DNA from: Turicibacter sp.
Lineage (GTDB): Bacteria > Bacillota_I > Bacilli_A > MOL361 > Turicibacteraceae
Assembly (NCBI GenBank): GCA_009787345.1
Contig: WRGF01000207.1
Coordinates: 1-24,000, forward strand
Direction of reading: 5' to 3'
Length of the DNA stretch: 24,000 nt
Positions within the stretch are counted from its first letter, which is position 1. Each line of letters starts with the position of its first letter. The position numbers and the translations under genes were made by a program. Below are positions 3,094-22,331 of this stretch, piece after piece. A model generated the notes under the pieces. The model was not told where the DNA came from. It saw nothing but the letters and a program-made list of their open reading frames with translations, and did no database searches.

Positions 3094-3555
3094 TTGGAAT
3101 TTTCAAACAAAATCGTCTTGCTGATTGGCTTCGTCTTATTTTTAGAGCTTCTTTTTGCCGTTTTTTGGGGTGGGGAGTATAACTGGAAGACCATTAGTTT
3201 TAGGACGAGCCTCGGGGCGATTATGGGGTATGTCATCGGCGGGATGGGCAGCGCATCCGTTGAAAAACCAGAACAACCGGTTGCAACACCAACTGCTGTG
3301 CAAAGTGAAACCCCTGTTTCGCCCGTGCCCGCAGATGCCGGTGGTGATTGCCTGCCCGATAGCCGCTCCATCCAAAGCATGGTCCATTTGCGCAATGCGG
3401 TAGCCGGCTTTGTTTGCCTGACTTCAGTGGTCGTCTTATTTTTAATCAACATCACCGGAAGCGAAAATACCTTTGCCGAGGGCGTCCTGCAAATCAGGGA
3501 CATGATGTCCACCACCCTTGGCTTCCTGATTTCTGCCTCGGGGCGAAAAAAATAA
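3094..3555 (+). CDS. Hypothetical membrane protein (start uncertain)
   Basis: The open frame runs 2917-3555. It has predicted TM stretches (IVLLIGFVLFLELLFAVFWGG, LGAIMGYVIGGMG, VAGFVCLTSVVVLFLINI) and a Pro/Thr/Val-rich linker. ATG 2917 abuts the upstream terminator and has no RBS. TTG 3094 is the first in-frame start downstream of any SD-like sequence (GGTG). I recognise no family. Confidence 0.35.
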   Translation: MEFSNKIVLLIGFVLFLELLFAVFWGGEYNWKTISFRTSLGAIMGYVIGGMGSASVEKPEQPVATPTAVQSETPVSPVPADAGGDCLPDSRSIQSMVHLRNAVAGFVCLTSVVVLFLINITGSENTFAEGVLQIRDMMSTTLGFLISASGRKK

Positions 3556-3594
3556 TGCAAAGGGGAGGCCAACATATAGGCATCCCCCTTTGCA
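3556..3594. terminator. Bidirectional terminator between convergent genes (mainly ends the met operon)
   Basis: TGCAAAGGGG(A) at 3556-3566 pairs with (T)CCCCCTTTGCA at 3583-3594. On the minus strand the hairpin is followed by TTATTTTTTT. On the plus strand only TTT follows. Confidence 0.75.
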
Positions 3595-4758: not shown

Positions 4759-5928
4759 TTACGCCAGTTTCAAGCTTCGCACCTTTACTTGCCCGAGTGC
4801 CTGTTCAAAGTCGGCAATCAGGTCATCCACTTGCTCAAGGCCCACCGACAGCCGGATCAGGCCATCGCTGATTCCCCGTTTTTGCCTCTCGGCTGCCGGC
4901 ATGGCGGCATGGGACATTTTGGCAGGGTAAGACAGGATGGATTCCACCCCGCCAAGGCTGACTGCATAGGCCGGCAGTTTCACATGCTTCAAAAAGATTT
5001 TCAACTCATTGACGCTTCCCAGTTCAAAGGACAAGACAGCGCCGGGCCCTGATGCCTGGCTTTTATGCTGGCGGTACTGGGGGTGGCTTTTAAGGCCAGG
5101 ATAATGGACTGCTTTTATTAGCGGGTGGCTTTCCAAATAACCCGCCATTTTTTGGGCAGACCTTTGGGATTCCGCCAAACGGACATGGAGGGTCTTAAGA
5201 CCCCGAAGGACCAGCCAGCAATCCTGGGCGCCAAGGACCGCACCAAAGGAATTTTGCAAAAACCCAAGGCGCTTGGCCAGGTCCTTGTTTTTCACGACGG
5301 CAAGCCCCGCCACCACATCGCTATGCCCCGACAGGAATTTGGTGGCGCTATGAAGGACGATGTCTGCCCCCAGGTCCAAAGGTCTTTGAAGCTGTGGCGT
5401 CAAGAAGGTGTTGTCCACGAAAGTCAATGCCCCTACCCCTTTTGCCAAGGCTGCAACCGCCCCTATATCCGTCACTTTCATGGTTGGGTTTGAAGGGGTT
5501 TCGATGTAAAATGCCTTCGTATTGGGGCGGATCCCCTGGCGGACGGCATTCAAGTTGGCCATGTCCACGAAGCTATGCTCCACCCCGAGGCGGCTCAAGA
5601 CTTCACTGACCAGCCGGTAGGTGCCCCCATAGACATCTTCCGAAATCAGCAAGTGGTCCCCAGCGGACAGTAATAGCAGCGCAGTGGAAATAGCAGCCAT
5701 CCCAGAGGCAAAAGCAAAGCCTGCCACCCCGCCTTCCAGTTCGGCGATAATCGACTCCAGCGCTTCACGGGTCGGGTTGCCGCTCCTTGAATAATCGAAT
5801 TTCCCAAAGCTGTCGAAATCGAATTGATGAAACGTCGAGGTGTGGTGCAATGGCGTGGATAAGGCCCCTGTTTCTTGGTCTACCTTATAATCGTTATGGT
5901 GAAGCTTCGTTTGAAATGTCACATCCAT
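4759..5928 (-). CDS. metC: Cys/Met-metabolism PLP-dependent enzyme, MetC-like (cystathionine beta-lyase type)
   Basis: 389 aa with YSRSGNPTR, the PLP-lysine motif HSATKFLSGH and a C-terminal GGVESILSYPAKMSHA...DGLIRLSVGLE. AGGAGG lies 8 nt upstream of ATG 5928. A SAM riboswitch precedes it. The beta-lyase versus gamma-synthase assignment is tentative. Confidence 0.8.
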   Translation of the reverse strand: MDVTFQTKLHHNDYKVDQETGALSTPLHHTSTFHQFDFDSFGKFDYSRSGNPTREALESIIAELEGGVAGFAFASGMAAISTALLLLSAGDHLLISEDVYGGTYRLVSEVLSRLGVEHSFVDMANLNAVRQGIRPNTKAFYIETPSNPTMKVTDIGAVAALAKGVGALTFVDNTFLTPQLQRPLDLGADIVLHSATKFLSGHSDVVAGLAVVKNKDLAKRLGFLQNSFGAVLGAQDCWLVLRGLKTLHVRLAESQRSAQKMAGYLESHPLIKAVHYPGLKSHPQYRQHKSQASGPGAVLSFELGSVNELKIFLKHVKLPAYAVSLGGVESILSYPAKMSHAAMPAAERQKRGISDGLIRLSVGLEQVDDLIADFEQALGQVKVRSLKLA

Positions 5929-6020: not shown

Positions 6021-6033
6021 ACGTCCAAAATCA

Positions 6034-6118
6034 CTCATCTACGGGAATTAGCACCGTGACCCATCCGTCCGGTTGCCGGGTTTCACAGGGCCTGTCCCTC
6101 CACCACTCTCGATAAGAA
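6034..6118 (-). promoter_or_regulatory. SAM-I (S-box) riboswitch aptamer upstream of metC/metI
   Basis: The minus strand reads CTTATCGAGAGTGGTGGAGGGACAGGCCCTGTGAAACCCGGCAACC...GGTGCTAATTCCCGTAGATGAG. This matches the conserved S-box core (TTATC.AGAG.GG.GGAGGGA..GGCCC..TGAA.CCCGGCAACC...GGTGC.AATTCC). The P1 helix is CTTATC/GATGAG. Confidence 0.92.
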
Positions 6119-6126
6119 TTGAATAT

Positions 6127-6942
6127 TTAGTTATCCCAAACCGCAAACGCTGCGTTGTTGGTAATGCGGGCGATGATGTCTGCCACTTCGTCTGTCTGGA
6201 AATGCTCGACCACAGTGCGCAAAAGTTCGCTGTCAGCATCTTCTGGACGGGCGACGATGGCATTGATAAATGGCGAGTTGACATCAAGCTCTTCAAGAAG
6301 CAAAGCTTCTTCGTGCGGGTTGATGCCTGCATCGTTGGCAACGGAAGCATTCATCAATGTCAACGTAACATCTGGCATCGTGCGTGGAAGCATCTGCGCC
6401 TGTACCGATACAAGTTCAAGCTCAAGCGGGTTGGCGACGATATCCTCAGCTGTTGGCAACCAACCAGAATCTGGTGCCAGTTCAATAAAGCCAGCTGCTT
6501 CTAAAAGCAATAAGCCGCGGGCAAAGTTGGCGACGTCTTCCGGCAAAGCAACGGTTGCCCCTACAGGGACGTTATCCAGGGAATCCAGAGTATCGGAATA
6601 AATCCCGAAGTACATGATCATCGTATTCCCAATCGGCACCAAGTTTTGGCCATTTGTTGCATTGTAGTTATCCAAGAAGTTGATGCTTTGGAAAGCGTTG
6701 ATGTCAAGGTCGCCTTCGACCAGGGCTGTGTTCGGCGCAACCCAGTCAGTAAAACGGACAATTTCAAGGGTAATCCCTTCTTCTGCCAATGTATCGCGGA
6801 CATGTTCCCACTGGTCAAGCTGCTCCCCAACGACACCGACGCGCACGGTCTGTTCGCTGTCGCTGCTGCCACCAGTTGCCCCACAAGCTGCAAGGCTTGC
6901 TACTGCCAATCCACTAAGTAATAATGTTGCAAATTTTTTCAT
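6127..6942 (-). CDS. metQ: Methionine ABC transporter substrate-binding lipoprotein (MetQ/NlpA family)
   Basis: Lipoprotein signal MKKFATLLLSGLAVASLAAC with a LAAC lipobox. The NlpA-family core is present (FTDWVAPNTALVEGDLDINAFQS). AGGAGG lies upstream of ATG 6942, and the ORF-track start at 6981 has no RBS. A SAM riboswitch sits upstream. No metN or metP/metI permease gene is adjacent. Confidence 0.85.
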   Translation of the reverse strand: MKKFATLLLSGLAVASLAACGATGGSSDSEQTVRVGVVGEQLDQWEHVRDTLAEEGITLEIVRFTDWVAPNTALVEGDLDINAFQSINFLDNYNATNGQNLVPIGNTMIMYFGIYSDTLDSLDNVPVGATVALPEDVANFARGLLLLEAAGFIELAPDSGWLPTAEDIVANPLELELVSVQAQMLPRTMPDVTLTLMNASVANDAGINPHEEALLLEELDVNSPFINAIVARPEDADSELLRTVVEHFQTDEVADIIARITNNAAFAVWDN

Positions 6943-6992
6943 GTGTTTATTCCTCCTAAAACTCTCTGCGAATTTCCTCATACTCTTTCCTT

Positions 6993-7211: not shown

Positions 7212-7235
7212 ACCAATCCTAAAAAGGTGCTTTCT

Positions 7236-7323
7236 CTCATCTCTAGGAATTGGCACCGTATCCATAATTGGATTGGTTGCCGGGCTTCACAGGGCCTGTC
7301 CCTCCGCCGCTCTTGATAAGAAA
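7236..7323 (-). promoter_or_regulatory. SAM-I (S-box) riboswitch aptamer upstream of metQ
   Basis: The minus strand reads TTCTTATCAAGAGCGGCGGAGGGACAGGCCCTGTGAAGCCCGGCAACC...ACGGTGCCAATTCCTAGAGATGAG. This is a near-textbook S-box core. Confidence 0.92.
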
Positions 7324-7468: not shown

Positions 7469-7477
7469 TGGTATAAT
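7469..7477 (+). promoter_or_regulatory. Extended -10 promoter (TGGTATAAT) driving the cobalamin riboswitch
   Basis: TGGTATAAT at 7469-7477. The riboswitch P1 begins about 10 nt downstream. The -35 is weak. Confidence 0.6.
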
Positions 7478-7483
7478 GATTCC

Positions 7484-7655
7484 ATGCCCATGGGGTTCAC
7501 GCAGTGATTAATAGGGAACGGTGTCAAAGCACCGGCAGCCCCCGCTACTGTAAGGCAAACGAAACTGAAAATGCCACTGGCCAAGTGCTGGGAAGGCCCA
7601 GGAGTAGGAAGATAACTTATCAGGTGCCAAGCCAGGAGACCTGCCCCATGGAGGA
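7484..7655 (+). promoter_or_regulatory. Cobalamin (B12) riboswitch
   Basis: The conserved core is present: AATAGGGAACGGTG..AAGCACCGGCAGCCCCCGCTACTGTAAGG, then ATGCCACTGG...CTGGGAAGGC, then the B12 box GCCAAGCCAGGAGACCTGCC (7626-7645). P1 is CCCATGGGG (7487-7495) with CCCCATGG (7644-7651). No intrinsic terminator follows, so control is probably at translation initiation. Confidence 0.9.
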
Positions 7656-7675
7656 TAATTCGGGAGGAATGAGTC

Positions 7676-8620
7676 ATGAAAAAAGTTTTAAGAAGCAGTT
7701 TGATGGCAGCAATATTAGCGGTACTTGCCGCCTGCGGTAATGCACCAACCACTGAGGTGGTGCAATCCGGGCGCAACACCATTTCCATGGTTGATCCATT
7801 AGGAAATAACATCGAAGTTTTGGAAAATGCCGAAACCATCGTCTCCCTGGCACCCGCCATTACCCAGGTGCTGATTGACCTTGGCGCCGCAGACCGCATA
7901 GTGGTGGTGGATACATGGACGGCGGGGCAGATGGACGGGTTTGATCAGTTGCCGCAGCTTGACATGATGGCACCCGACATGGAAACCCTACTGGCCCTGG
8001 CGCCGGAACTGGTCTTGGCGGGAGAAGTCAGCTTCGGGATGGACGGGGATATTTTCCAGCCGTTGATGGATGCGGGGATAGCCGTTGCCCAAATCCCGAC
8101 CAGCAACAGCATCCAGGCCATCAAGGAGGATGTGCAGTTCATCGCCGATGTGGTGGGGCTTCATGATGAGGGGGCAATGCTTCTCGACGACATGCAGTCC
8201 GCCATTGACGAAATTACTTCATTGACACAGGATGTGGAAGAACCAAAACGCGTTCTGTTTGAAATCAGCCCCCTTCCGGACATTTTCAGTTTCGGGACAG
8301 GGACATTCCTGAATGAAATGCTTGAATTGGCAGGCGCTGTCAACGTTTTTTCCGACCAGCAAGGGTGGTTGCCCGTAACGGAAGAAGCCGCTGTTGCCGC
8401 CAACCCGGATGTGATTTTGACCAACGTGGATTTCCTTGAAGATCCAGTTTCAGAAATCTTGGGACGCAGTGGCTGGACCCATGTCGCCGCCATCGAAAAT
8501 GGTGCGGTCCATTATGTGGACAATGGCTATACCAGCTTGCCGAACCACCGCATCGTTAATGGGCTTCGGGAAATGGCAAAAGCCATCCATCCTGAAACTT
8601 TCCAATCACTGGGAGAATAA
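7676..8620 (+). CDS. btuF: Cobalamin/chelate ABC transporter substrate-binding lipoprotein (BtuF/FhuD-type, PBP type 8)
   Basis: Lipoprotein signal MKKVLRSSLMAAILAVLAAC. The layout is typical of periplasmic binding protein type 8 (IVSLAPAITQVLIDLGAADRIVVVD ... NPDVIL). It lies directly behind a cobalamin riboswitch. Confidence 0.8.
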   Translation: MKKVLRSSLMAAILAVLAACGNAPTTEVVQSGRNTISMVDPLGNNIEVLENAETIVSLAPAITQVLIDLGAADRIVVVDTWTAGQMDGFDQLPQLDMMAPDMETLLALAPELVLAGEVSFGMDGDIFQPLMDAGIAVAQIPTSNSIQAIKEDVQFIADVVGLHDEGAMLLDDMQSAIDEITSLTQDVEEPKRVLFEISPLPDIFSFGTGTFLNEMLELAGAVNVFSDQQGWLPVTEEAAVAANPDVILTNVDFLEDPVSEILGRSGWTHVAAIENGAVHYVDNGYTSLPNHRIVNGLREMAKAIHPETFQSLGE

Positions 8621-8626
8621 CTAGCA

Positions 8627-10474
8627 TTGGACAAAAAAATTAAATTCATCCTGTTGGGTGCTGCTGCCTTTGCCGCTATCATTTTAGCCGTGGGCATCGG
8701 CACTGTTTCCATCCCGCCCACCCACATCCTGGCCATCCTTGGAAACCGCTTGTTCGGGTTCAGCTTGCCGGATTCAGTATCCGCCAACTGGGTTCCCATC
8801 GTCTTCAACATCCGCCTGCCCCGGGTGCTCCTCGCTTTCATCGTCGGCGCAGCCATGTCGGTGGCGGGCACCCTCATGCAGTCCCTCCTCCAAAATCCCC
8901 TGGCCTCCCCTTTCACCATCGGGGTCTCGGCCGGTGCGTCACTGGGCGCAGCCGTCTTTATCGTCTTTAGCCTCTCCATCCCTTTCCTTGGGATTTTCGG
9001 CCTGCCCCTCATGGGATTTTTAAGCGGCCTCGCCACCGTCCTTCTCATCCTGGGGCTCACCCTCCGCCTGGACCGACACATGGGCAACCACACCCTCCTT
9101 TTGGTAGGCATGGTCGTTTCCCTCTTCATCAACGCACTCATCACCCTGCTCATTGCCACCTCCCGCCAATTCATGGAACAGCTGATTTTATGGCAGTTGG
9201 GGAGTTTTGCAGGAAGGGGATGGAACGCTGTCGGAATCATGCTGGGGATTTCCTTGATTGGAACTGGGCTTAGCCTGTGCCTTTTTAAAGAACTTGATAT
9301 GCTGGCCTTCGGCGAAGAACAGGCCGCCTTTATGGGGGTGAACATCAAGCGGGTCAAGCCGCTGCTCTTGACCCTGAGCGCCTTCTTAGCAGGCGGAGCC
9401 GTTTCCTTCGTGGGCATCATCGGCTTCGTGGATTTGATTTCCCCCCACCTTGCCAGGCGGATTTTCGGGGCTTCCCACCGGGTGGCCATACCTGGAGCCG
9501 CCTCACTAGGAGGAACCCTGATGGTCATCGCCGACTTGGTGGGGCGCACTTTGATTTCACCCCAAGAAATCCCAGTAGGTGCCATCACCGCCCTCATCGG
9601 CGCACCTTTTTTCATCTACATCTACGGGAAAAAGGGTCCAGCGGGGCAAAACCGTTCCCCGTTGGACCCATTGCCTGCTTTAAAGACCAGTCACGGTGAA
9701 ACTGCCAACCAAATTGACATCCAAAACCTCTCGGCGGGATATGGCGAGACACCTGTTATTCAAAATTTAAACCTGAAAATCAATAAAAACCTCGCCATTT
9801 TAGGCCCTAACGGCTGCGGGAAAACCACGTTGCTCAAAGCCATCGCGGGTATGCTGCCTTTTAACGGCAACATTTCCTTGGATGGTACTGATTTATCTAT
9901 GTTCAGGCGGCGGGAACTTGCGGGGCAGATTGCCATGCTTCCCCAAATCCGCCACATCCAGTTTCCTTATACGGTGTGGGAGGCGGTAAGGATGGGCCGT
10001 TACCGCTGTCAAAAAAGCAGCCTATTTTCCAGCAGCCCCACGAAAGAGGATTGTCAGGTGATTGAGGGGCTCCTGGAAGCCTTGGGGCTGTCACCTTATC
10101 AGGAATCCCAACTGGACCAATTATCCGGCGGGCAGCTGCAACGGGTATTTTTAGCCCAGGCATTGGCACAGGACCCGAAAATCATCCTGTTGGATGAGCC
10201 CACCAACCATTTGGACATGAAATACCAGTTAGAACTGATTGATTACCTGAAAAACTGGGCGGCAACCCATAACCGCTTGGTCATCGGGGTGTTCCACGAC
10301 ATCAACCTGGCCCTAAGGCTGACTTCCCAAACCTTATTTTTAAAGGACGGCAAGATTGCCGGGCTAGGCGATGCAAAAAGTGTCATCACCAAAGATTTCC
10401 TCAAAGAAGTTTATGGCATCGACATGGCTTCCTATATGAAGGATTCGCTTGCCATATGGGAACATTTCGGCTAA
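8627..10474 (+). CDS. Fused FecCD/BtuC-type permease and BtuD-type ATPase (single 615-aa polypeptide)
   Basis: The N-terminal ~335 aa form a FecCD-family permease (GTLMQSLLQNPLASPFTIGVSAGASLGAAV). A ~30-aa linker follows (GKKGPAGQNRSPLDPLPALKTSHGETANQ). The C-terminal ~250 aa form an ABC ATPase with Walker A GPNGCGKTT, signature LSGGQLQRV, Walker B IILLDEPT and H-loop VFHD. The start is TTG 8627, with GGGAGAA about 9 nt upstream. Confidence 0.8.
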   Translation: MDKKIKFILLGAAAFAAIILAVGIGTVSIPPTHILAILGNRLFGFSLPDSVSANWVPIVFNIRLPRVLLAFIVGAAMSVAGTLMQSLLQNPLASPFTIGVSAGASLGAAVFIVFSLSIPFLGIFGLPLMGFLSGLATVLLILGLTLRLDRHMGNHTLLLVGMVVSLFINALITLLIATSRQFMEQLILWQLGSFAGRGWNAVGIMLGISLIGTGLSLCLFKELDMLAFGEEQAAFMGVNIKRVKPLLLTLSAFLAGGAVSFVGIIGFVDLISPHLARRIFGASHRVAIPGAASLGGTLMVIADLVGRTLISPQEIPVGAITALIGAPFFIYIYGKKGPAGQNRSPLDPLPALKTSHGETANQIDIQNLSAGYGETPVIQNLNLKINKNLAILGPNGCGKTTLLKAIAGMLPFNGNISLDGTDLSMFRRRELAGQIAMLPQIRHIQFPYTVWEAVRMGRYRCQKSSLFSSSPTKEDCQVIEGLLEALGLSPYQESQLDQLSGGQLQRVFLAQALAQDPKIILLDEPTNHLDMKYQLELIDYLKNWAATHNRLVIGVFHDINLALRLTSQTLFLKDGKIAGLGDAKSVITKDFLKEVYGIDMASYMKDSLAIWEHFG

Positions 10475-10897: not shown

Positions 10898-11314
10898 TTA
10901 CACCTCCAGATAAGTTTTAATCAAATGTGCGGCTGCCTGCGAATCAAAATGCAAACGGCGGCCCGGCAATGGCTTAGCGCCATATTTTTCGATATAATAC
11001 TTATAGGTCACGGTCTTGCTTTCAAAAACGACAAACCCATCAAATCCATTTTGAAACGAATCCATTGCAATAAAAGCCAACAGTTCCCCAGCAACGGTTG
11101 TGCCACGAAATTTTTTGGAAACTTCAATCAAGTACATGAAATTGTATAATTCACTGCTCATACGCTCAAATTCAATCAGCCCCGCAATTTCGCCTTGCAC
11201 TTGGGCAGAAAAAATTTTTGTTTGGGGATAGGTGTGGACACTCCAATCAAATTCAAAGCCTTCCAACGCTTGAAGGGAAGCAGTGTCCTCAACTTCTAAT
11301 ATTTTTGCCAACAT
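10898..11314 (-). CDS. GNAT-fold N-acetyltransferase-like protein (138 aa)
   Basis: The core LIEFERMSSELYNFMYLIEVSKKFRGTTVAGELLAFIAMDSFQNGFDGFVVFESKTVTYKYYIEKYGAKPL has the beta4-alpha3-beta5 layout of small GNAT proteins. The CoA-loop is degenerate (RGTTVA instead of R/QxxGxG/A). The start is ATG 11314, with AAGGAGG 8 nt upstream. The ORF-track GTG at 11332 overlaps that RBS. Confidence 0.6.
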   Translation of the reverse strand: MLAKILEVEDTASLQALEGFEFDWSVHTYPQTKIFSAQVQGEIAGLIEFERMSSELYNFMYLIEVSKKFRGTTVAGELLAFIAMDSFQNGFDGFVVFESKTVTYKYYIEKYGAKPLPGRRLHFDSQAAAHLIKTYLEV

Positions 11315-11348
11315 CCCATGTCCCTCCTTCACTAAAATACATAACTTT

Positions 11349-11752: not shown

Positions 11753-13084
11753 ATGAAACAAAAACCTTTGCTTATGGCCACCTTGGCCCTGGCCATCCCA
11801 AGCATTGTCCAACAGCTTTTTACCAATGCCGCCCAGATGGCGGATAATTTAATGGTGGGGCAACTCCAAGAAAGCGCCATTGCCGGGGTGACCATTACCA
11901 ACCAGGTGTTTTTTATATTCACCTTGGTGATTTTTGGCATCACAAGCGCTGCCGGGATTTATATGACTCAATATTTCGGTACCGGCAACAAGGGAAAAAT
12001 GCTGGAAATCTTTCGCATCTCCCTTCTATTCGGCCTTTTGACCGGGGGGTTCTTTTACGCCATCATGCACTTTTTTCCCAGATACGTCCTTTCATTTTTC
12101 GCCAGTTCACAAGACACCATTGCGCATGCCAAGGAATATCTTCGCTACATCCAATTCACCTTCCTGCTGTTTCCGGTTACCATGATGGTCACCTCAGGCT
12201 TTCGCTTCAACGGCTACGTCCGCCTACCCATGTACCTCTCCCTTTTCACCGTCGCCGTGGGGATTTTCCTCAATTACGGCCTGATTCATGGGAACTTTGG
12301 AATGCCTGCCCTTGGGGTGGCTGGAGCCGGCCTTGCTACACTCATTGCCCGGGTGCTGGAAATGTCCCTTGCCATTTTGCTCACTTTGGTCTTGGATACC
12401 CCCATCAAATTGAGCGCCCTTAAAGTCTTCGGTTTCACTAAGGAACTGCTTATGGACTTCATTAAAAAAGGGTATGGCCTGGTGATGAATGAATTTTTTT
12501 GGGCGTTCGGGGTCCAGGCCCTGACCGTCATTTACACCCAGCGCATCAGCGCCAACATTGCTTCCTTGAGCATTTCGCAGGCCCTTGGCAACCTGATTTT
12601 CATCGGTACTGGAGGCATGAGCGTGGCCTTTTCCATTATTTTGGGGGAGCACCTGGGACGGGGCGAATTCGGGGAAGCCAAGGACAAAGCACGTTCCCTC
12701 CTGAGGATTTCTGCCGGCACCGGCCTGATTTTGGGCGCCCTTGTCTTTTTGCTCTCTTTCCCACTTTTTGGATTTTACGACGTAGCCCCTGCCACCATCC
12801 AGACTGCCCGCACCCTTTTATTGATCAACGCGGTTTTTAGCTGGCTTTACTACATCAACGCCGGGCTTTACTTTATTTTAAGGAGCGGCGGCGACACGAA
12901 AGGGGTTGTCATGATCGACTCGGGCTTCAACTGGATCATTATGATTCCCGTCGCTTTTTTACTTGGGCGCTTTGAAATCCTTTTGCCCCTGCATTTTTTA
13001 TTGGTCCAGCTCCTTGAACTGCTGAAACTGGCAGTGGGCAGGAAATTGACAAATAGGGATGCCTGGCTTAAAAATTTGACATAA
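11753..13084 (+). CDS. MATE family multidrug/toxic-compound efflux transporter
   Basis: About 443 aa with 12 TM segments. The N-terminus KPLLMATLALAIPSIVQQLFTNAAQMADNLMVGQL is typical of MATE (MatE repeat) proteins. The start is ATG 11753, with GGAGGA 8 nt upstream. Confidence 0.85.
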   Translation: MKQKPLLMATLALAIPSIVQQLFTNAAQMADNLMVGQLQESAIAGVTITNQVFFIFTLVIFGITSAAGIYMTQYFGTGNKGKMLEIFRISLLFGLLTGGFFYAIMHFFPRYVLSFFASSQDTIAHAKEYLRYIQFTFLLFPVTMMVTSGFRFNGYVRLPMYLSLFTVAVGIFLNYGLIHGNFGMPALGVAGAGLATLIARVLEMSLAILLTLVLDTPIKLSALKVFGFTKELLMDFIKKGYGLVMNEFFWAFGVQALTVIYTQRISANIASLSISQALGNLIFIGTGGMSVAFSIILGEHLGRGEFGEAKDKARSLLRISAGTGLILGALVFLLSFPLFGFYDVAPATIQTARTLLLINAVFSWLYYINAGLYFILRSGGDTKGVVMIDSGFNWIIMIPVAFLLGRFEILLPLHFLLVQLLELLKLAVGRKLTNRDAWLKNLT

Positions 13085-15542: not shown

Positions 15543-16484
15543 ATGGAACAGAATGTGAGAAGGGTCGTGTTGGTGGGAACGGGGCTCGTTGGTACGAGCT
15601 TTGCCTATTCTTTACTAAATCAGGGCGGCGTCAAGGAATTGGTGCTCATCAACCGGACGAGGGAAAAAGCGGTTGGGGAAGCCAGCGATTTAAGCCATGG
15701 GCTCCCTTTCTCACCCTACCGGATGAAAATCTGGGCGGGGGATTATTCAGATTGTCAAAGCGCCGACATCGTCCTCATTGCCGCCGGTTCGGGGCGGATG
15801 CCCGGCGGCGACCGGCTCAGCCTGCTTCAGAGAAACGCCGAAATGGTCAAAAACATCGTCAGGCAGGTGATGGACTCCGGGTTTGATGGCATCATCCTCA
15901 TGGCCAGCAACCCGGTCGACCTGCTCACCTACATCGCCTGGAAGGAGTCGGGGCTTCCTGCTTCACGGGTCATCGGCTCGGGGACCACCCTTGATACCGC
16001 CCGCTTCCGCTATGAAATCGGCAATTATCTGAACGTGGACCCCCGTGACATCAATGGCTACATCATTGGCGAGCACGGCGATTCCGAGTTTGCCGTTTGG
16101 AGCCATACGACCCTTGGGGTCACCCCAATCAGCGAGATCGTGGGCCGGCACCCTGAGTTTAAATTCAGTGATTTGGAGCAGATTTTCCAAAATGTCCGTC
16201 AGGCTGGTTATGAGATCATCAGCCAAAAAGGGGCGACCTACTACGGGATTGGCATGGCCCTGGCGAAGATTGTGCGGGCTATTTTAAACGACGAAAATAG
16301 CCTGCTGCCTGTCTCCGTTTATTTGAACGGACATTATGGGCACCACGATGTGTTCATCGGTTTTCCCGCTTTGCTCAATAAAAATGGCGTCCGCAAGGTG
16401 ATTGAAATGAACTTAAACGAAGAAGAACGGGCAAAGCTTGATGCTTCCGTCGGGGTGTTGAAATCGTACATAACAAAAATGTAA
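15543..16484 (+). CDS. ldh: L-lactate dehydrogenase
   Basis: Rossmann motif VVLVGTGLVGTSFAYSL, substrate-arginine region GSGTTLDTARFRY and catalytic-histidine motif IGEHGDSEF. 313 aa. GAGGTG lies 8 nt upstream. Confidence 0.9.
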   Translation: MEQNVRRVVLVGTGLVGTSFAYSLLNQGGVKELVLINRTREKAVGEASDLSHGLPFSPYRMKIWAGDYSDCQSADIVLIAAGSGRMPGGDRLSLLQRNAEMVKNIVRQVMDSGFDGIILMASNPVDLLTYIAWKESGLPASRVIGSGTTLDTARFRYEIGNYLNVDPRDINGYIIGEHGDSEFAVWSHTTLGVTPISEIVGRHPEFKFSDLEQIFQNVRQAGYEIISQKGATYYGIGMALAKIVRAILNDENSLLPVSVYLNGHYGHHDVFIGFPALLNKNGVRKVIEMNLNEEERAKLDASVGVLKSYITKM

Positions 16485-16534
16485 AGACGGATGATCATCC
16501 CAAAATCACAGGGATTATCAGCCGTCTTTATTTT
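16483..16534. terminator. Long imperfect hairpin terminator shared by ldh (+) and the pxp/acc operon (-)
   Basis: AAAGACGG..TGAT.ATCCC (from 16483) pairs with GGGAT.ATCA.CCGTCTTT (to 16529). On the plus strand ATTTT follows. On the minus strand ACATTTTTG follows. Confidence 0.75.
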
Positions 16535-16581: not shown

Positions 16582-17355
16582 TTACCCGATAATCTCCGCC
16601 AATGGGGAGATTTTTATTCCCGCCCCTTGGAGGCCTTCCCTGATCTTTTCAATAAAAACCAAGGCTTTCTCACCATCGCCATGAACGCAGATGGAATCTG
16701 CCTGGATGGCGATGTCCTCCCCATTGACAGCCTTGACTTTCCTTTCGCTGACCATCCGCACGACCCTTGCCACCGCTTCTTCTTCATCATGGATGAAAGC
16801 ACCGGCTTTGCTTCTTGCCACTAACGACCCATCGGGCTCATAACTCCGGTCGGCAAAAACTTCCTGGGCAGCTTTAAGCCCTAAATCCTTTGCCGCACGG
16901 ATCGTTTCGCTACCGGAAAGCCCCATGACAATCAGCGACGGGTCGAATTCTTGGATAGCCTCACAGATGGCTCGTGATAACTCATAATCCTTGGCTGCCA
17001 TATTATACAGCGCCCCGTGGGGCTTGACATGCTGCATTTTGATACCTTTGGCCCGGCAAAAGCCATCCAGGGCCCCCAGTTGGTAAAGTACAGTGGCTTT
17101 CGCCTCTTCAAAGGAAAGGGACATATTGCGCCTGCCAAACCCTTGCAGGTCAGGGAAAGATGGATGGGCACCTATCCCAATCCCCGCTGCTTCGATCAAG
17201 CCCACGGTTTGCAGCATCACCACAGGATCGGCTGCATGAAACCCGCAGGCCACGTTGGCAGAGGAAATCAAAGGCATGGCCTGGGCATCCATTCCCAGCT
17301 GATAGCGCCCAAAGCTTTCACCAAGGTCGCAATTCAAATCCACCTTATTCGACAT
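16582..17355 (-). CDS. pxpA: 5-oxoprolinase subunit A (PxpA; LamB/YcsF family)
   Basis: The N-terminal VDLNCDLGESFG signature and GAHPSFPDLQGFGRR match the LamB/YcsF family. ATG 17355 lies behind AAGGAGG and overlaps the end of accC by 11 nt. Confidence 0.85.
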   Translation of the reverse strand: MSNKVDLNCDLGESFGRYQLGMDAQAMPLISSANVACGFHAADPVVMLQTVGLIEAAGIGIGAHPSFPDLQGFGRRNMSLSFEEAKATVLYQLGALDGFCRAKGIKMQHVKPHGALYNMAAKDYELSRAICEAIQEFDPSLIVMGLSGSETIRAAKDLGLKAAQEVFADRSYEPDGSLVARSKAGAFIHDEEEAVARVVRMVSERKVKAVNGEDIAIQADSICVHGDGEKALVFIEKIREGLQGAGIKISPLAEIIG

Positions 17356-18724
17356 CCTCACGCCTCCTTTCCAAATCAGAATCCATATTCAGCATTTTTT
17401 CCACAAAGCTGGTATCGGCTTTCCCAGCGACAAAGATGGGGTTGCGCATAATCTGGTATTGGAAATCCAAGTTGGTCTGAACGCCTAAAATCACCATTTC
17501 ATCCAAGGAAGTGCGCATCTTGCGGATAGCCTCCTTGCGGGTCGGTGCATGGACGAGGACCTTTGCCACCATGGAGTCGTATTCTGAAGGTATTTTATAA
17601 CCCGAATATAGCCCTGAATCAATTCGGATCCCGTTGCCCCCTGGAAAATGGACTTTTTCTACCAAACCTGGGCTTGGCATAAAATTTTTCTCCGGGATTT
17701 CTGCATTGATCCGGCACTCGATGCAATGCCCAACCATTTTAATGTCTTCTTGGTTGAAACTCAAAGGCCAGCCCATGGCGATGCGGATTTGTTCGATGAC
17801 CAAATCCGTCCCCGTCACCATTTCCGTCACGCCATGCTCCACTTGGATGCGGGTATTCATCTCCATGAAGTAGTAGTTCCCTTCCTGGTCCACGATGTAT
17901 TCGATCGTCCCGGCATTGGTATAACCCACGGCTTTGGCTGCCATTACTGAATCTGCGCTCATTTTTTGGCGCGTTTCCTCGGTAATGGCAGGGGACGGGG
18001 CTTCTTCAATCAGCTTTTGGTGGTTTCGCTGCACGGAGCAGTCCCGCTCCCCTAAAGAAACCACATTGCCATGATGATCCGCAATAATCTGGATCTCCAC
18101 ATGCTTGGGTTTTTCGATGAAGCGCTCGATATACATCGTATCGTCACCGAAGGCATTGGCGGATTCCGTCTGTGCCAAATTGAACTGCCCCTTGAAATCT
18201 GCTTCTTTCTTGGCAATCCGCATCCCTTTACCGCCTCCGCCGCTAGAGGCTTTGATAATGACGGGAAATCCGATTTTCTTGGCTTCCTTTAATGCCGCTT
18301 CTACAGCAAAGACCGGCTCTTTTGTTCCTGGGACAACGGGAACCCCTGCTGCCATCATCGTCTTCCTGGCTTCGGATTTATTTCCCATTTTATGGATGAC
18401 CTCAGGGGATGGCCCGATAAAAGCAATCCCATGCTCTTTGCATAAAGCAGCAAATTCCTCTTTTTCAGACAAGAACCCAAATCCGGGATGGATGGCATCA
18501 GCCCCCATGTTAAGGGCTGCCATAATTATCTGGGACTGGTTCAGATAGTTTTTGGTAATGGGCCCTTCTCCAATGCAAATCCTTTGGTCGGCCAGTTGGA
18601 CATGAAGGCTGTCTGCGTCTTCCTTGGCATAAATAGCTACGCTGCGGATCCCTAAATTGCGGCAAGCCCTGATGATCCTCACAGCAATTTCACCGCGGTT
18701 GGCGATTAAAATTTTTCGAAACAC
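17345..18724 (-). CDS. accC: Biotin carboxylase (AccC-type, ATP-grasp)
   Basis: It carries KILIANRGEIAVRIIRACR, the glycine loop SSGGGGKGMR and MEMNTRIQVEHGVTE. The start is GTG 18724 (VFRKILIANRG) with AGGGGTG 6 nt upstream. The 33-aa N-terminal extension in the ORF track overlaps accB and is not credible. Confidence 0.88.
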   Translation of the reverse strand: MFRKILIANRGEIAVRIIRACRNLGIRSVAIYAKEDADSLHVQLADQRICIGEGPITKNYLNQSQIIMAALNMGADAIHPGFGFLSEKEEFAALCKEHGIAFIGPSPEVIHKMGNKSEARKTMMAAGVPVVPGTKEPVFAVEAALKEAKKIGFPVIIKASSGGGGKGMRIAKKEADFKGQFNLAQTESANAFGDDTMYIERFIEKPKHVEIQIIADHHGNVVSLGERDCSVQRNHQKLIEEAPSPAITEETRQKMSADSVMAAKAVGYTNAGTIEYIVDQEGNYYFMEMNTRIQVEHGVTEMVTGTDLVIEQIRIAMGWPLSFNQEDIKMVGHCIECRINAEIPEKNFMPSPGLVEKVHFPGGNGIRIDSGLYSGYKIPSEYDSMVAKVLVHAPTRKEAIRKMRTSLDEMVILGVQTNLDFQYQIMRNPIFVAGKADTSFVEKMLNMDSDLERRREDVE

Positions 18725-18735
18725 AGGCTTCACCC

Positions 18736-19176
18736 CTAATCTATAATTGGCGTTACGCGAAACAAGGGTTGCCCGTATTCCACTTTTTGCTCGTTGCTGA
18801 CAAGGACCGCCTCGATCTTGCAATCAAAATCGCTTTCGATTTCGTTCAACAGTTTCATGGCTTCCAAAATACATACCTTCTGCCCAGCTTTTACCGTATC
18901 TCCAACGGTGACAAAAGGCTTTTCCTCTGGGGATGATGCCGAATAGAAAATCCCCACAATAGGGGAAATAATGTACATTTCCTCTTCTTCTGCTTCCAGT
19001 TCCTGGCTTTGGCTAACGGAAACTTTTACCGGTGGTTCTGCCCCTGCTGTCACAAAAGTCTCTGCGTTGGGCCGGCGGCTCATTTCGATTTTAACACCGC
19101 CCTCCTTGATGCAAAAATCCAGCATGGAAGAATTTTCTACGATTTTTACCAACTGCTCAATTTTATCTAAATCCAT
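18736..19176 (-). CDS. accB: Biotin carboxyl carrier protein (AccB-type)
   Basis: The C-terminal biotinyl domain SPIVGIFYSASSPEEKPFVTVGDTVKAGQKVCILEAMKLLNEIE carries the EAMK biotinylation motif. ATG 19176 lies behind GAAGGGAG. Confidence 0.85.
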   Translation of the reverse strand: MDLDKIEQLVKIVENSSMLDFCIKEGGVKIEMSRRPNAETFVTAGAEPPVKVSVSQSQELEAEEEEMYIISPIVGIFYSASSPEEKPFVTVGDTVKAGQKVCILEAMKLLNEIESDFDCKIEAVLVSNEQKVEYGQPLFRVTPIID

Positions 19177-19194
19177 TTGACCTGCTCCCTTCAT

Positions 19195-20199
19195 TTATCT
19201 CATCATCCTTTCCAAGCGCTTCGCCGTCAACCGGCAGTCCAGGACTTCACGGCATGGGTGATGGATCTGCCTTCTGTATTGATCCATTTCTTTGACTTCC
19301 TCACGCAAAAGTAGTTGGGCTTCTTCCACTGTGACTTCTTTGAACCGGACCTTATCCCCGGTTTTGCACTGCACCAATTTAGGCAAGTCCGCAGATATCA
19401 CCGTAGCGATTTTACCGTAACCGCCAGTTGTCTGCCGGTCGGCCAATAAGATAATCGGTTTTCCGTGGCTAGGGACTTGGATGGAGCCAAAAGCAATCCC
19501 ATCGGAAATAATATCACTGGTCGTTTTTGCGGCAATATAAGGGCCATCGAGGCGGCAGCCCATCCGGTCAAAATCACTGGTTACCGTATAGCTGCTTTTA
19601 TAAAATGTCTTCTTGCCCGCTGCTGTAAACAATTGGTCCTGAGGCCCTGGAACCACCCGAAGTTGGATTTCCTGCTCCTTGAATTCGTTGATTTGAAGCT
19701 TCCTTGAAAGGAAAAAGGGGATGTAGCGGCGCTTGACCCTAAAATATAGGTAATCATCTTTTTGCAGCTTGCGGCCATTAAAGCCCCCGACCCCGCTTTT
19801 TAAATTGGTGCTTCTGCTTCCCATGACCATTGGGATATCCAAATAGCTTGAAAAGGCTATATAGCCACGGGAGCCGGTTGCCGAACTGCCCAACTCCAAA
19901 ACATCCCCTTTGTTCACATAAATGGCTTGGTACATCGTAACCGGGGCTTCATTGATTTTGGGGCTGAAATCACCGCCAGTAATAGCAATAATCGTATCGG
20001 ACGTAAATTCCAGGGTGGGGCCGATGAGGGTAAATTCCAAAACTGCTTCATTTTCCGGATTATCCAGCAACAGGTTGGCTAATTTGAATGACCTGACATC
20101 CATCACCCCGGAAACGCCAAACCCCTGGCTTTGGAAACCGGTCCGCCCTAAATCCTGGACAGTGGTCAGCAAACCCGCTTTAATTACGCGAATCCCCAT
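19195..20199 (-). CDS. pxpC: 5-oxoprolinase subunit C (PxpC; KipA / allophanate hydrolase subunit 2 family)
   Basis: The N-terminus VIKAGLLTTVQDLGRTGFQSQGFGVSGVMD is the KipA-family signature. About 334 aa. ATG 20199 lies 1 nt after the pxpB stop codon, with its RBS AGAGGTG inside pxpB. Confidence 0.85.
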   Translation of the reverse strand: MGIRVIKAGLLTTVQDLGRTGFQSQGFGVSGVMDVRSFKLANLLLDNPENEAVLEFTLIGPTLEFTSDTIIAITGGDFSPKINEAPVTMYQAIYVNKGDVLELGSSATGSRGYIAFSSYLDIPMVMGSRSTNLKSGVGGFNGRKLQKDDYLYFRVKRRYIPFFLSRKLQINEFKEQEIQLRVVPGPQDQLFTAAGKKTFYKSSYTVTSDFDRMGCRLDGPYIAAKTTSDIISDGIAFGSIQVPSHGKPIILLADRQTTGGYGKIATVISADLPKLVQCKTGDKVRFKEVTVEEAQLLLREEVKEMDQYRRQIHHPCREVLDCRLTAKRLERMMR

Positions 20200-20200
20200 T

Positions 20201-20920
20201 TTACACCTCTTTTCTGCGGACCTGGCATTTATACCCCGCATCATTTTCTATTTTATCGAACATTTCCTTGGTTATTGGGACAAACTTGATATAGTCGCCG
20301 GCTTCAAATAAAATGGGCGGCTTTCGCAAAGCCTCATAGGTTTTCACCGGGGTCCGGCCAAGTAGCTGCCAGCCACCAGGCGACTCCAATGGGTAAATCC
20401 CCGTCTGGGCGCCGCCAATGCCGACGCTCCCCTGAGGGATCTTCAACCGGGGATCTTCAAGCCGTGGGACATGGATGCGCTCATCAAGCCCCCCTAAATA
20501 CGGGAACCCCGGCATAAAGCCAAGCATATAAATCAAGTATTCCGGCTCGCTGTGAATCTTGATGACCTCCTCAGCGCTAAGCCCGGAAAGCTTCGCAATG
20601 TTTTCCAGGTCAGGACCGCATTCCCCGTCATAACAGACAGGGATTTCAAATACCCGCCCCATAGCCCCAGCAGCTTGTGACGCAGTTTTAGAAAGTTCTT
20701 TCATTTTTTTGACGAGGGTAGCATAAGTTACCAGGCGCGGGTCATAGTTAATCAGTAACGAGCAAAATGCCGGGACCTGGTCGATGATGCCCGCTGTGGG
20801 CATGCTTTTCAAAGCCTTGGAAAATGCGGTAATCTTAGCATTGGTTTCTTCTGAAATATCATGCCCGAACTCCAATAAAACCGATGAATCCCCTACGGGG
20901 GAAAATTGAATGTCTGCCAT
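20201..20920 (-). CDS. pxpB: 5-oxoprolinase subunit B (PxpB; KipI / allophanate hydrolase subunit 1 family)
   Basis: 239 aa. The features FEIPVCYDGECGPDLENIA and PGFPYLGGLD are typical of the KipI family. ATG 20920 lies 2 nt after the transporter stop codon, with AGGAGG inside the upstream gene. Confidence 0.85.
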   Translation of the reverse strand: MADIQFSPVGDSSVLLEFGHDISEETNAKITAFSKALKSMPTAGIIDQVPAFCSLLINYDPRLVTYATLVKKMKELSKTASQAAGAMGRVFEIPVCYDGECGPDLENIAKLSGLSAEEVIKIHSEPEYLIYMLGFMPGFPYLGGLDERIHVPRLEDPRLKIPQGSVGIGGAQTGIYPLESPGGWQLLGRTPVKTYEALRKPPILFEAGDYIKFVPITKEMFDKIENDAGYKCQVRRKEV

Positions 20921-20922
20921 AG

Positions 20923-22128
20923 CTACCTCCTAATCAAATTCATTAAGCCGCCCAATGAGGTCACTCCCATATAAGCTGCGCCCACAGCCACTAAAATCCC
21001 CAAAACAAAGAGCACTGGCGGGTGGCGGTAATCGGCACCCATGATTTTTTTGTTTTGGGAGGCAATCAGGCAAACCCCTAGGGTAATCGGCAAAATCAAC
21101 CCATTGAGGGCACCCGCCAACACTAATAGCGTTGCGGGGCGGCCAATCGCTGCCATAATAACAGTGGATAAGGCGATGAAACCAATAATAAACCATTTTT
21201 CATAGCGTGCGACAAACCCGTTCAAAGTTTTAAGAAAGGAAACGGAAGTATAAGCTGCACCGATAATGGATGTCAGGGCTGCGGAAAATAGTACTAGCCC
21301 AAAGAAACGGTAACCGATTTGCCCTGCTGCTTGGGAAAATGCATCTGCTGCCGGGTTATCAGGGTTAAGCCCTGTGACAGACGTTAGGACCACCCCAAGG
21401 ACAGCCAAGAACAAAAAGGCACGGACAACAGTCGCCACAATAATCCCCATCACAGAACTTCGCCTGATTTGGGTAAGCTGTGACCAGCCGGTGATTTTGG
21501 CATCAATCAACCGGTGGGCACCTGAGAAGGTAATATAGCCCCCTACAGTTCCCCCAAGCAAAGTCAGGATCGGGAAAAATAAATCCGGAAGGTCATTGGA
21601 AGGCGCTACTGCTTCCCTTAAGGCATAGCCCATTGGCGGGCGGACCATAAAAATAACAACCAGCATCACGACGATCATCAAGCTCCCCAATGCCTTGGTC
21701 ACATTGTCCATAGCCTTCATGGCATCTTTCACTAAAAAGATAGCGATGGCCACAATCCCTGCCACGAAGAAACCAATGCCTTCCGGTACCCCAAGCATGC
21801 TATTAAGCCCCAGGGCACCGCCGCCCACATTTCCAATATTGAACGCAATCCCGCCCAAGATAATCAAAAAGGCGACAAAATGCCCAAGCCCTGGCAATAT
21901 TTTATTGGCGACATCTTGCCCCCTAAGCCCCGAAACGCAAAGGACCCGCCAAATATTGAGCTGAACAATACAAGCCAAAATGCTGGCGACTAAAATAACA
22001 AACCCAAAACTTCCTTGAAGAGTCCCCGTAAAAACTGCCGTTTGGGTCAAAAAACCTGGTCCTACTGCCGAAGCCGCCATAATAAAGGCCGCACTAAGAA
22101 GGGTTCCCCCCATTTTTTTCTTGGTCAT
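20923..22128 (-). CDS. NRAMP-superfamily membrane transporter (YcsG-like)
   Basis: About 401 aa with 11-12 TM segments. The N-terminus AASAVGPGFLTQTAVFTG resembles the NRAMP-related YcsG found next to pxp genes in B. subtilis. The start is ATG 22128 behind AAAGGAG. Confidence 0.75.
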   Translation of the reverse strand: MTKKKMGGTLLSAAFIMAASAVGPGFLTQTAVFTGTLQGSFGFVILVASILACIVQLNIWRVLCVSGLRGQDVANKILPGLGHFVAFLIILGGIAFNIGNVGGGALGLNSMLGVPEGIGFFVAGIVAIAIFLVKDAMKAMDNVTKALGSLMIVVMLVVIFMVRPPMGYALREAVAPSNDLPDLFFPILTLLGGTVGGYITFSGAHRLIDAKITGWSQLTQIRRSSVMGIIVATVVRAFLFLAVLGVVLTSVTGLNPDNPAADAFSQAAGQIGYRFFGLVLFSAALTSIIGAAYTSVSFLKTLNGFVARYEKWFIIGFIALSTVIMAAIGRPATLLVLAGALNGLILPITLGVCLIASQNKKIMGADYRHPPVLFVLGILVAVGAAYMGVTSLGGLMNLIRR

Positions 22129-22292
22129 ACTAATTTCTCCTTTCAAATTTCACTGGGCCTTGCGAAGGCTTTACAATAAAGCCTTTGGGTTAGCATTATC
22201 CTGCAAGAATTTCGCCACTATTCAATAGTTTCTCCAATCGTACCAATTTCTTCCACAAAAAGCAAGGAATTAACCCTTTTTTATCCAAATTC

Positions 22293-22324
22293 AAAAGGGG
22301 CTGCGGCAAACGGCCACACCCCCC
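22293..22324 (-). terminator. Rho-independent terminator of the xylanase gene
   Basis: The minus strand reads GGGGTGTGGCC-GTTT-GCCGCAGCCCC (imperfect stem, 22297-22324), followed by TTTT (22293-22296). It starts 8 nt after the stop codon at 22332-22334. Confidence 0.65.
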
Positions 22325-22331
22325 AAATCCA

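Follow-up and report, generated by a model that had tools for sequence, protein, structure and literature searches.

Introduction

The closest described relatives of the locus reported here include the prokaryotic 5-oxoprolinase PxpABC (YbgJ/YbgK/YbgL in Escherichia coli; KipI/KipA/YcsF, with YcsG and YcsI, in Bacillus subtilis) and, for the composition of its modules, urea carboxylase or urea amidolyase (Kluyveromyces lactis; 3VA7, 5I8I) and the guanidine carboxylases. In this work we describe six adjacent minus-strand genes in the window, by which we mean the whole 24,000-nucleotide stretch of DNA that was analysed (contig WRGF01000207.1 of assembly GCA_009787345.1, deposited as Turicibacter sp.). 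They encode an NRAMP-fold transporter, PxpB, PxpC, a biotin carboxyl carrier protein (BCCP), a biotin carboxylase (BC) and PxpA (Table 1). We estimate at roughly 55% the probability that these genes form one operon encoding one metabolic machine, namely a transporter together with a five-protein, biotin-dependent version of PxpABC.

As in the known 5-oxoprolinase systems, PxpA, PxpB and PxpC are all present in the window; their PxpABC homologues are the best matches in sequence and Protein Data Bank (PDB) searches, and an NRAMP-fold transporter of the YcsG/PxpT type accompanies the pxp genes here too. The window differs in having dedicated BC and BCCP genes inserted between pxpC and pxpA, of which E. 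coli has none, in lacking YcsI (PF07286), the usual partner in acc-less relatives, and in a PxpC that stays under the NCBI cut-off for PxpC equivalogs. The urea carboxylase group has the same four modules (BC, carboxyltransferase (CT) subdomains A/B, CT subdomains C/D, and BCCP) and, as far as can be proposed from the genes of the window, a similar logic, in which ATP-driven carboxylation of an amide nitrogen is followed by the action of a separate hydrolase. There the modules are joined in one chain of ~1200 aa, whereas the window encodes four separate polypeptides, whose partner hydrolase would be PxpA and not allophanate hydrolase. In Aspergillus nidulans, lamA, coding for a urea-carboxylase-like biotin protein, and lamB, coding for a PxpA homologue, are required for the use of 2-pyrrolidinone. 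This pair would be a fused counterpart of the window system, although it is eukaryotic and concerns another lactam.

The same six gene products as in the window are encoded by the pxpB operon of Staphylococcus aureus (NWMN_1510-1505 in strain Newman; SAOUHSC_01712 and neighbours in NCTC 8325). In strain Newman, PxpB, PxpC, BCCP (WP_001019337), BC (WP_000942744), PxpA and a transporter called 'divalent metal cation transporter' belong to one transcription unit, and all six genes drop together in a ccpE mutant (PMC11315280). The authors took the accBC genes of this operon for fatty-acid synthesis genes. The transporter gene comes last in S. aureus and first in the window; moreover, the S. aureus operon is a citrate/CcpE target, whereas no CcpE-type regulator was identified at the window locus. 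An 'additional' BCCP and BC alongside pxpB and pxpC has also been reported in L. pentosus.

Finally, mycobacterial homologues of PxpC and PxpB (MSMEG_0435/0436; 138 and 106 bits against the window proteins) bind the BCCP domains of AccA3, and in the cryo-electron microscopy study of 2026 one biotin occupies a CT-like site, 'positioned to participate in a carboxylation reaction' in the words of the authors (PMC13012033). The mycobacterial pair differs from the window system in using a BCCP borrowed from AccA3 and in its apparently inhibitory effect; that paper describes neither a dedicated BC nor a dedicated BCCP.

Results

Conservation of the pxp-acc linkage

One genome per species was scanned with the BC of the window, and the best 80 loci (62-76% identity) were inspected. 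In 79 of them the BC gene was found in the order pxpB-pxpC-BCCP-BC, nearly always with pxpA downstream, and these 79 loci cover Bacillota and Actinomycetota. Such a recurrence of the arrangement is more than chance. Loci whose BC is ~66-76% identical also have an NRAMP-like gene upstream and stem mostly from Lachnospiraceae (Blautia, Mediterraneibacter, Eubacterium ramulus, Robinsoniella) and other Clostridia, while the remaining ~17 belong mostly to Eggerthellaceae (Gordonibacter, Eggerthella, Adlercreutzia, Ellagibacter) and thus to another phylum, the Actinomycetota. The sole exception among the best 80 loci, L073, is a type II fatty-acid synthesis (FASII) cluster of the order fabK-fabD-fabG-fabF-accB-fabZ-accC-accD/A. 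No family of regulators or flanking genes was common to more than 11 of the ~79 loci. Since the flanks are not conserved, the six-gene block itself appears to be the conserved unit and the unit of selection.

In addition, a metagenome sample of 80 loci (L098-L177), seeded with a diverse PxpC alignment, was classed by the identity of PxpC to that of the window. At identities of at least 65%, BCCP (and BC where the contig reaches) followed pxpC in all 18 evaluable loci, with none carrying only a gene of family PF07286 (D-glutamate cyclase/YcsI family) and none of any other type. In the class of 45-57% identity, 50 loci were evaluable: seven had BCCP/BC (four of them also PF07286), 38 had PF07286 without BC or BCCP, and five had other arrangements. 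Over the metagenome loci, 38 carried the YcsI-like gene only, 21 BCCP/BC only, and four both. The PF07286 class represents the arrangement of the B. subtilis type, and acc-linked and acc-less pxp clusters fall into different clades or classes; linkage to acc genes is thus a property of particular clades and not of all pxp loci. The initial annotation had called for a survey of neighbourhoods for pxpB/pxpC-accBC linkage, and in both samples this linkage proved to be conserved. Taken with the staphylococcal operon, this gives the pxp-acc module a wide distribution in Eggerthellaceae, staphylococci and Clostridia of the gut.

Two side observations were made in the surveyed loci. A PF07286 gene very often follows pxpC (for example in L116, L117, L130 and L145, and at 11407-12303 of L064) and tends to alternate with BCCP-BC; the operon of the window has no PF07286 gene. 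In L111 (11200-16100) and L112 (~11520 onwards) the operon ends after BCCP, and AT-rich DNA takes the place of BC and pxpA. In L111, the one of the two whose open reading frames (ORFs) were inspected, this stretch includes an ORF of 1532 aa. The AT-rich DNA looks like an insertion or replacement.

Dedicated accBC genes versus fatty-acid synthesis

Four contigs from human gut (L107, L108, L110 and L118) carry a PxpC ~72% identical to that of the window, and two of them (L107 and L118) keep a full BC of ~76% identity. In L118, a FASII cluster fabH-fabK-fabD-fabG-fabF-accB-fabZ-accC, encoded on the strand opposite to that of the pxp operon, ends ~6 kb upstream of it, and part of a cluster of this type is likewise found upstream of the operon in the other three. 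The FASII AccB is 51% identical to the AccB of L073 and only 38% identical to the BCCP of the window. An AccD/A query gave zero matches in the 80 metagenome loci, accD/A being seen only in the FASII locus L073, and no AccA/AccD or fab gene is present among the annotated ORFs of the 24-kb window. S. aureus also possesses separate housekeeping copies, AccB WP_001009516 and AccC NWMN_1431/WP_000756612 (PMC11315280).

Judged by these gene contents, the relatives possess the accBC pair as a dedicated paralogue. The initial annotation had named, as a case that would refute its proposal, that the pair is the only accBC copy, with a linkage not shared by relatives; what was found instead, in favour of the proposal, is a conserved linkage, with separate accBC genes both in the relatives and in S. 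aureus.

Rearranged gene orders, fusions and neighbours

The five soluble proteins also stay together in loci with at least three other gene orders. L084 has the order pxpA-pxpB-pxpC::BCCP-BC-NRAMP, and L087 shares this core and has its NRAMP gene upstream of it. In L093 the order is pxpB-pxpC-2-hydroxyacid dehydrogenase-pxpA-SDF transporter-BCCP-BC, and in L145 pxpA-NRAMP-pxpB-pxpC-BCCP-BC-YcsI.

Fusions were surveyed among representatives of 50%-identity clusters, namely the 150 that best matched the PxpC of the window. PxpC-BCCP fusions were confirmed by Pfam in at least eight representatives (up to 11 by BLAST or motif), and another 14 were PxpB-PxpC fusions. The fused BCCPs retain the whole AccB-like module. 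One of the PxpC-BCCP fusions, P0275, nests within the window's own PxpC clade and shares 72% identity with the PxpC and 64% with the BCCP of the window. In the window, accB lies in the same reading frame as pxpC with a single TAA stop between them (19195-19197 and 19176-19194), so that loss of this TAA would yield a PxpC-BCCP fusion like P0275. A carrier domain that is joined covalently to PxpC, as in the fusions, is hard to reconcile with anything but direct cooperation. An AlphaFold2 model of another natural PxpC-BCCP fusion, P0129, had a predicted local distance difference test score of 79 overall, but large parts of its linker and BCCP fell below 50, and its BCCP part is unreliable.

The fusion loci L084 and L087 have genes for glutamate dehydrogenase and aminotransferases beside them, and L087 also contains a beta-carbonic anhydrase gene. 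YcsI-like genes occur in related pxp loci, and an acc-less relative has a pyroglutamyl peptidase gene together with DUF969/DUF979. Taken as genomic context, these neighbours in relatives support glutamate as a product and bicarbonate as a reactant of the putative enzyme. RraA-like, PrpD-like and AcnX genes were also noted beside the fusion loci. Together, all these neighbours (noted at 12139-12672 and 10837-12093 of L087 and at 195-1541 of L084) hint that the loci belong to a larger catabolic island linked to glutamate or bicarbonate.

Properties of BCCP and BC

The motifs on which the initial annotation had based its prediction of functional BCCP and BC were all found. BCCP contains LEAMKL with the biotinyl-lysine K108 (codon 18855-18853), and BC contains ILIANRGEIA, GGGGKGMR and MEMNTRIQVEH. 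BCCP scored 137 with TIGR00531 (cut-off 115) and, when aligned with E. coli AccB, FASII AccB and fused BCCPs, proved to be an acetyl-CoA carboxylase (ACC)-type carrier, with N-terminal domain, linker, 'thumb' and EAMK. BC scored 651.5 with the accC model TIGR00514 (cut-off 626.5), and all 18 active-site and glycine-loop residues that were checked in an alignment with E. coli AccC are conserved. The BC of the window is 64-65% identical to a FASII AccC.

Relationship of PxpA, PxpB and PxpC to known enzymes

All four modules of a urea-carboxylase-type enzyme, which the initial annotation had listed as separate subunits, were indeed recovered as four proteins. The urea carboxylase model TIGR02712 gave partial scores of 520 for BC, 190 for PxpC, 69 for PxpB and 30 for BCCP, all far below its cut-off of 1304.

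PxpB matched Pfam CT_C_D with 261 bits and the equivalog model TIGR00370 with 230 (cut-off 145), and its best PDB matches were PH0987 (2PHC), KipI (2ZP2) and YbgJ (5DUD). PxpC matched Pfam CT_A_B with 310 bits and the domain-level model TIGR00724 with 298 (cut-off 230); with the equivalog model NF045499 it reached 252.6, below the cut-off of 500. PDB matches of PxpC were YbgK 5DUD (7e-54), MSMEG_0435 3MML/9YX5 (3e-39) and urea carboxylase 3VA7 (3e-33). Both proteins also align to the CT domain of urea carboxylase (3VA7, 5I8I) and to MSMEG_0435/0436; in these comparisons they are closer to the canonical YbgJ/YbgK than to urea carboxylase. By homology, PxpC would be the biotin-holding subunit. 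The 100%-identical database entry of the window PxpC is named 'biotin-dependent carboxyltransferase family protein' by NCBI, and PxpC-like proteins already bear this name or 'biotin-dependent carboxylase-like' at NCBI and JGI. PxpA matched Pfam LamB_YcsF with 348.7 bits and, at subfamily level, NCBIfam NF003814 with 375 (cut-off 226), and is presumed to be the metal-dependent lactam or amide hydrolase of the system.

A urea or guanidine carboxylase was considered as primary reading of the locus and rejected, since the CT parts are nearer to YbgJ/YbgK and the window lacks genes for allophanate hydrolase and carboxyguanidine deiminase.

Transporter gene

The initial annotation had described the transporter as NRAMP-like. 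This holds for the fold, as the protein scored 97.7 bits with Pfam Nramp (cut-off 29.8), and does not hold for the canonical metal ligands, which are missing in an alignment with E. coli MntH; with the MntH model NF001923 the protein reached only 35 against a cut-off of 430. DPGN in transmembrane helix 1 (TM1) is replaced by GPGF (22051-22062), and the AxxMPH region in TM6 (GATIMPH in E. coli MntH) by GGTVGGY (21535-21555). Both replacements are invariant in nine aligned orthologues. A PDB sequence search with the transporter gave no match at E <= 0.01.

PxpT, a homologous transporter of Corynebacterium glutamicum, is needed for growth on 5-oxoproline, and for B. subtilis YcsG an earlier proposal was that of a Mn2+ importer. 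The loss of ligands fits the role of PxpT and fits less well with the Mn2+-importer proposal. The transporter is probably the importer of the organic substrate. Since the canonical Mn2+/Fe2+ ligands are missing, the annotation of members of this subfamily as 'divalent metal transporter' is called into question.

Operon layout and expression signals

Inspection of the junctions bore out the compact layout described previously, with six co-directional minus-strand genes between 16582 and 22128, gaps of 2, 1, 18 and 11 nt and an 11-nt overlap of accC and pxpA. A Shine-Dalgarno sequence is present before every start. The ribosome-binding sites had all been placed within preceding genes, and this applies to three of the five, namely those of pxpB (AGGAGG), pxpC (AAGAGG) and pxpA (GGAGG); those of accB (AAGGGAG) and accC (GGGGTGA) lie in the short gaps. 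The claim that internal terminators are missing stands as well, as the terminator-like sites within the operon are weak 5-bp stems occurring nine times, against 9.6 expected from shuffles.

Downstream of pxpA, a hairpin (16483-16529) has a fold energy of -23.9 kcal/mol (z -4.3) on the minus strand and of -24.6 kcal/mol (z -7.4) on the plus strand. U-rich tails follow it on both strands, the operon strand continuing with ACAUUUUUG. The hairpin is probably a bidirectional terminator common to the pxp operon and ldh; a simple terminator scan overlooked it.

A promoter scan of the leader region 22129-22331, which probably holds the promoter, gave zero matches on the minus strand. This region also contains a terminator-like GC hairpin of the xylanase gene and a small hairpin (AAGGCUUUAuugUAAAGCCUU) in the 5' untranslated region of the operon, which is not significant (z -1.4) and is not kept in orthologous loci. 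Control of the operon by a riboswitch or leader was rejected, given that zero Rfam riboswitch families were found at the operon and that this palindrome is neither significant nor conserved.

Remaining features of the window

The genes flanking the operon are unrelated to it, and other genes of the window are ordinary transport and methionine genes (Table 1). Two ORFs on the minus strand, 2934-3575 (213 aa) and 10898-11332 (144 aa), had no Pfam match and are putative genes. The G+C content of the window is ~50%, and the nearest counterparts of its BC and Pxp proteins (~75% identity) are those of Lachnospiraceae; the database entry with the identical PxpC (P0001), from a metagenome-assembled genome at NCBI, is labelled '[Turicibacter sp.]'. 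The taxonomic label Turicibacter looks doubtful.

Table 1. Positions of the pxp-acc genes, their signals and other features of the 24,000-nucleotide window.
Feature	Position	Strand	Basis or remark
NRAMP-fold (YcsG/PxpT-like) membrane transporter, 401 aa	20923-22128	-	Pfam Nramp
PxpB (KipI type; CT subdomains C and D), 239 aa	20201-20920	-	Pfam CT_C_D
PxpC (KipA type; CT subdomains A and B), 334 aa	19195-20199	-	Pfam CT_A_B
Biotin carboxyl carrier protein (BCCP), 146 aa	18736-19176	-	TIGR00531
Biotin carboxylase (BC), 459 aa, ATP-grasp, GTG start	17345-18724	-	TIGR00514
PxpA (LamB/YcsF family), 257 aa	16582-17355	-	Pfam LamB_YcsF
Probable bidirectional terminator hairpin	16483-16529	both	between convergent pxpA and ldh; fold energy
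Intergenic leader and probable promoter region of transporter gene	22129-22331	-	sequence reading
GH10 xylanase gene	upstream flank of operon		family scan
L-lactate dehydrogenase (ldh), RnfD-like protein, SpoIIP	downstream flank of operon		family scan
Cobalamin riboswitch	7476-7662	+	102 bits
BtuF-like binding protein gene	7676-8620	+	downstream of cobalamin riboswitch
615-aa ORF, FecCD permease fused to ABC ATPase	8627-10474	+	downstream of cobalamin riboswitch
S-adenosylmethionine (SAM) riboswitch	7234-7322	-	precedes NlpA/MetQ-like lipoprotein gene 6127-6981
SAM riboswitch	6032-6118	-	precedes Cys/Met-metabolism pyridoxal phosphate enzyme genes 4759-5928 and 3596-4732

Discussion

The initial annotation had proposed that BC and BCCP belong functionally to PxpB and PxpC and not to fatty-acid synthesis. 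Synteny, rearranged gene orders, gene fusions and the separate FASII accBC genes all speak for this proposal, and at the level of genome comparison a functional coupling of BC and BCCP with PxpB and PxpC is well supported. The intact catalytic motifs of BC and BCCP also speak for it, and the mycobacterial homologues that hold biotinyl-BCCP provide a precedent from structure.

How the coupled proteins might work can be outlined as follows. The NRAMP-fold permease would import a lactam, most likely 5-oxoproline. BC would carboxylate the biotin on K108 of the dedicated BCCP at the expense of ATP and bicarbonate, and BCCP would swing into the PxpB/PxpC module, where the carboxyl group would be passed to the ring nitrogen (or the lactim oxygen) of the substrate. 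The metal hydrolase PxpA would then open the activated ring, and the product N-carboxy-glutamate would lose CO2 spontaneously. As this carbamate decarboxylates, bicarbonate would act catalytically, and the net reaction would be 5-oxoproline + ATP + 2 H2O -> glutamate + ADP + Pi. ATP would pay for a ring opening that is otherwise unfavourable, in parallel to the pair of urea carboxylase and allophanate hydrolase. We infer from the genes which substrate is used, where it is carboxylated and in what order the steps run. A precedent for the involvement of bicarbonate is offered by caprolactamase, an unrelated ATP-dependent enzyme with a strict need for bicarbonate, for which a carboxy-lactim intermediate has been proposed (PMC8453981).

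We tentatively propose, at somewhat short of even odds, that the pxp-acc module is a bicarbonate-catalytic, biotin-dependent lactam hydrolase, in which N- or O-carboxylation by carboxybiotin serves only to prepare 5-oxoproline, or another lactam related to it, for PxpA to open the ring; this would be a new reaction class of biotin enzymes. In the searchable literature no proposal or test of a biotin-dependent 5-oxoprolinase or lactamase was found. The earlier statement that such a complex had not been defined biochemically thus stands with respect to that literature and has to be qualified with respect to the operon type, which was already annotated, and studied at the level of transcription, in S. 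aureus.

Several observations weigh against a catalytic role of the biotin components. The canonical pxpABC locus of E. coli is devoid of BC and BCCP, and so are the pxp loci of B. subtilis and C. difficile as described. Niehaus et al. reportedly reconstituted the activity in 2017 from PxpA, PxpB and PxpC alone. Moreover, co-purified PxpB and PxpC show ATPase activity (PMC8453981), and together with the reported reconstitution this means that BC is not obviously needed for coupling to ATP. In the metagenome sample, only 7 of the 50 evaluable loci with 45-57% PxpC identity possess BCCP/BC, and 38 carry a YcsI-like gene instead. The mycobacterial complex had no detectable urea carboxylase activity and lowered the activity of the host's carboxylase (PMC13012033). 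Finally, the pxp-linked BCs are not monophyletic: in a small neighbour-joining tree, with thin sampling of housekeeping BCs, the FASII BC of L073 falls between pxp-linked groups, and the idea of one dedicated BC lineage is therefore not supported.

Among other explanations, it is conceivable, though rather unlikely, that PxpB, PxpC, BC and BCCP form a genuine biotin-dependent enzyme whose substrate is other than L-5-oxoproline, with PxpA hydrolysing the carboxylated product. Candidates would be another lactam, an amide or a ureide, such as 5-oxo-D-proline, 2-pyrrolidinone, a hydantoin, or a urea- or guanidine-like compound. The PxpC score below the NCBI equivalog cut-off (253 versus 500) would fit such a change, different substrates could underlie the separation of acc-linked and acc-less pxp clades, and the Eggerthellaceae loci join BCCP-BC with a D-glutamate-cyclase-family gene. 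The need for lamA and lamB when A. nidulans uses 2-pyrrolidinone would fit as well. On the other hand, PxpA and PxpB exceed the cut-offs of the NCBIfam subfamily and equivalog models, respectively, the nearest PDB structures are those of YbgJ/YbgK and not of urea carboxylase, and the window has no gene for the hydrolase or deiminase that acts after urea or guanidine carboxylase. The neighbouring glutamate dehydrogenase and aminotransferase genes point to glutamate as product, and the homologous transporter of C. glutamicum is needed for the use of 5-oxoproline.

Alternatively, two independent functions might share the operon, with a self-sufficient PxpABC and a spare BC/BCCP pair that serves ACC, with accA/accD encoded elsewhere, or another carboxylase and is merely co-regulated with glutamate metabolism. 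We regard this as unlikely. BC and BCCP do exceed the equivalog cut-offs for accC and BCCP, the 'thumb' of the ACC type is retained in BCCP, BC shares 64-65% identity with a FASII AccC, the authors of the S. aureus study read the operon's accBC in terms of fatty acids, and canonical PxpABC needs no biotin parts. Yet no accA or accD was seen in any pxp-linked locus, relatives carry a complete FASII accB-fabZ-accC set and the pxp operon on one contig, and S. aureus has its own housekeeping copies. Co-regulation alone would hardly explain a BCCP fused to the C-terminus of PxpC, and the linkage survives rearrangement and transfer between phyla.

A regulatory instead of a catalytic role, in which the proteins tune a carboxylase or sense biotin or carboxybiotin status and the operon's BCCP and BC are the regulated partner, is very unlikely. 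In its favour, the only complex of PxpBC-like proteins and BCCP observed by experiment sequesters biotin and inhibits propionyl-CoA carboxylase by ~50%, with no carboxyltransfer detected. On the other hand, mere sequestration would give no purpose to a dedicated BC whose catalytic residues are all conserved throughout the family, to a fused BCCP or to a neighbouring carbonic anhydrase, and PxpA and the transporter travel with the set.

Returning to the biotin-dependent version of PxpABC, the operon type was known from annotation, notably in S. aureus, and PxpC-like proteins were already labelled as biotin-dependent; what is new is the proposal that PxpABC is combined with a biotin enzyme of the urea carboxylase type. 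If the coupling is catalytic, enzymology would gain a split, five-protein biotin-dependent carboxylase with a urea-carboxylase-type carboxyltransferase that acts on a lactam. In S. aureus, where the operon is among the strongest CcpE/citrate targets, it would explain the second accB/accC pair, which is routinely mis-read as fatty-acid genes. In mycobacteria, it would provide a functional rationale for the binding of biotinyl-BCCP by PxpBC-like proteins: by analogy, acc-less PxpB/PxpC that bind a housekeeping BCCP may use its carboxybiotin in trans and not just act as inhibitors. For metabolism, the module would bear on how 5-oxoproline, which is a universal damage metabolite and also feeds gut bacteria, is disposed of or used.

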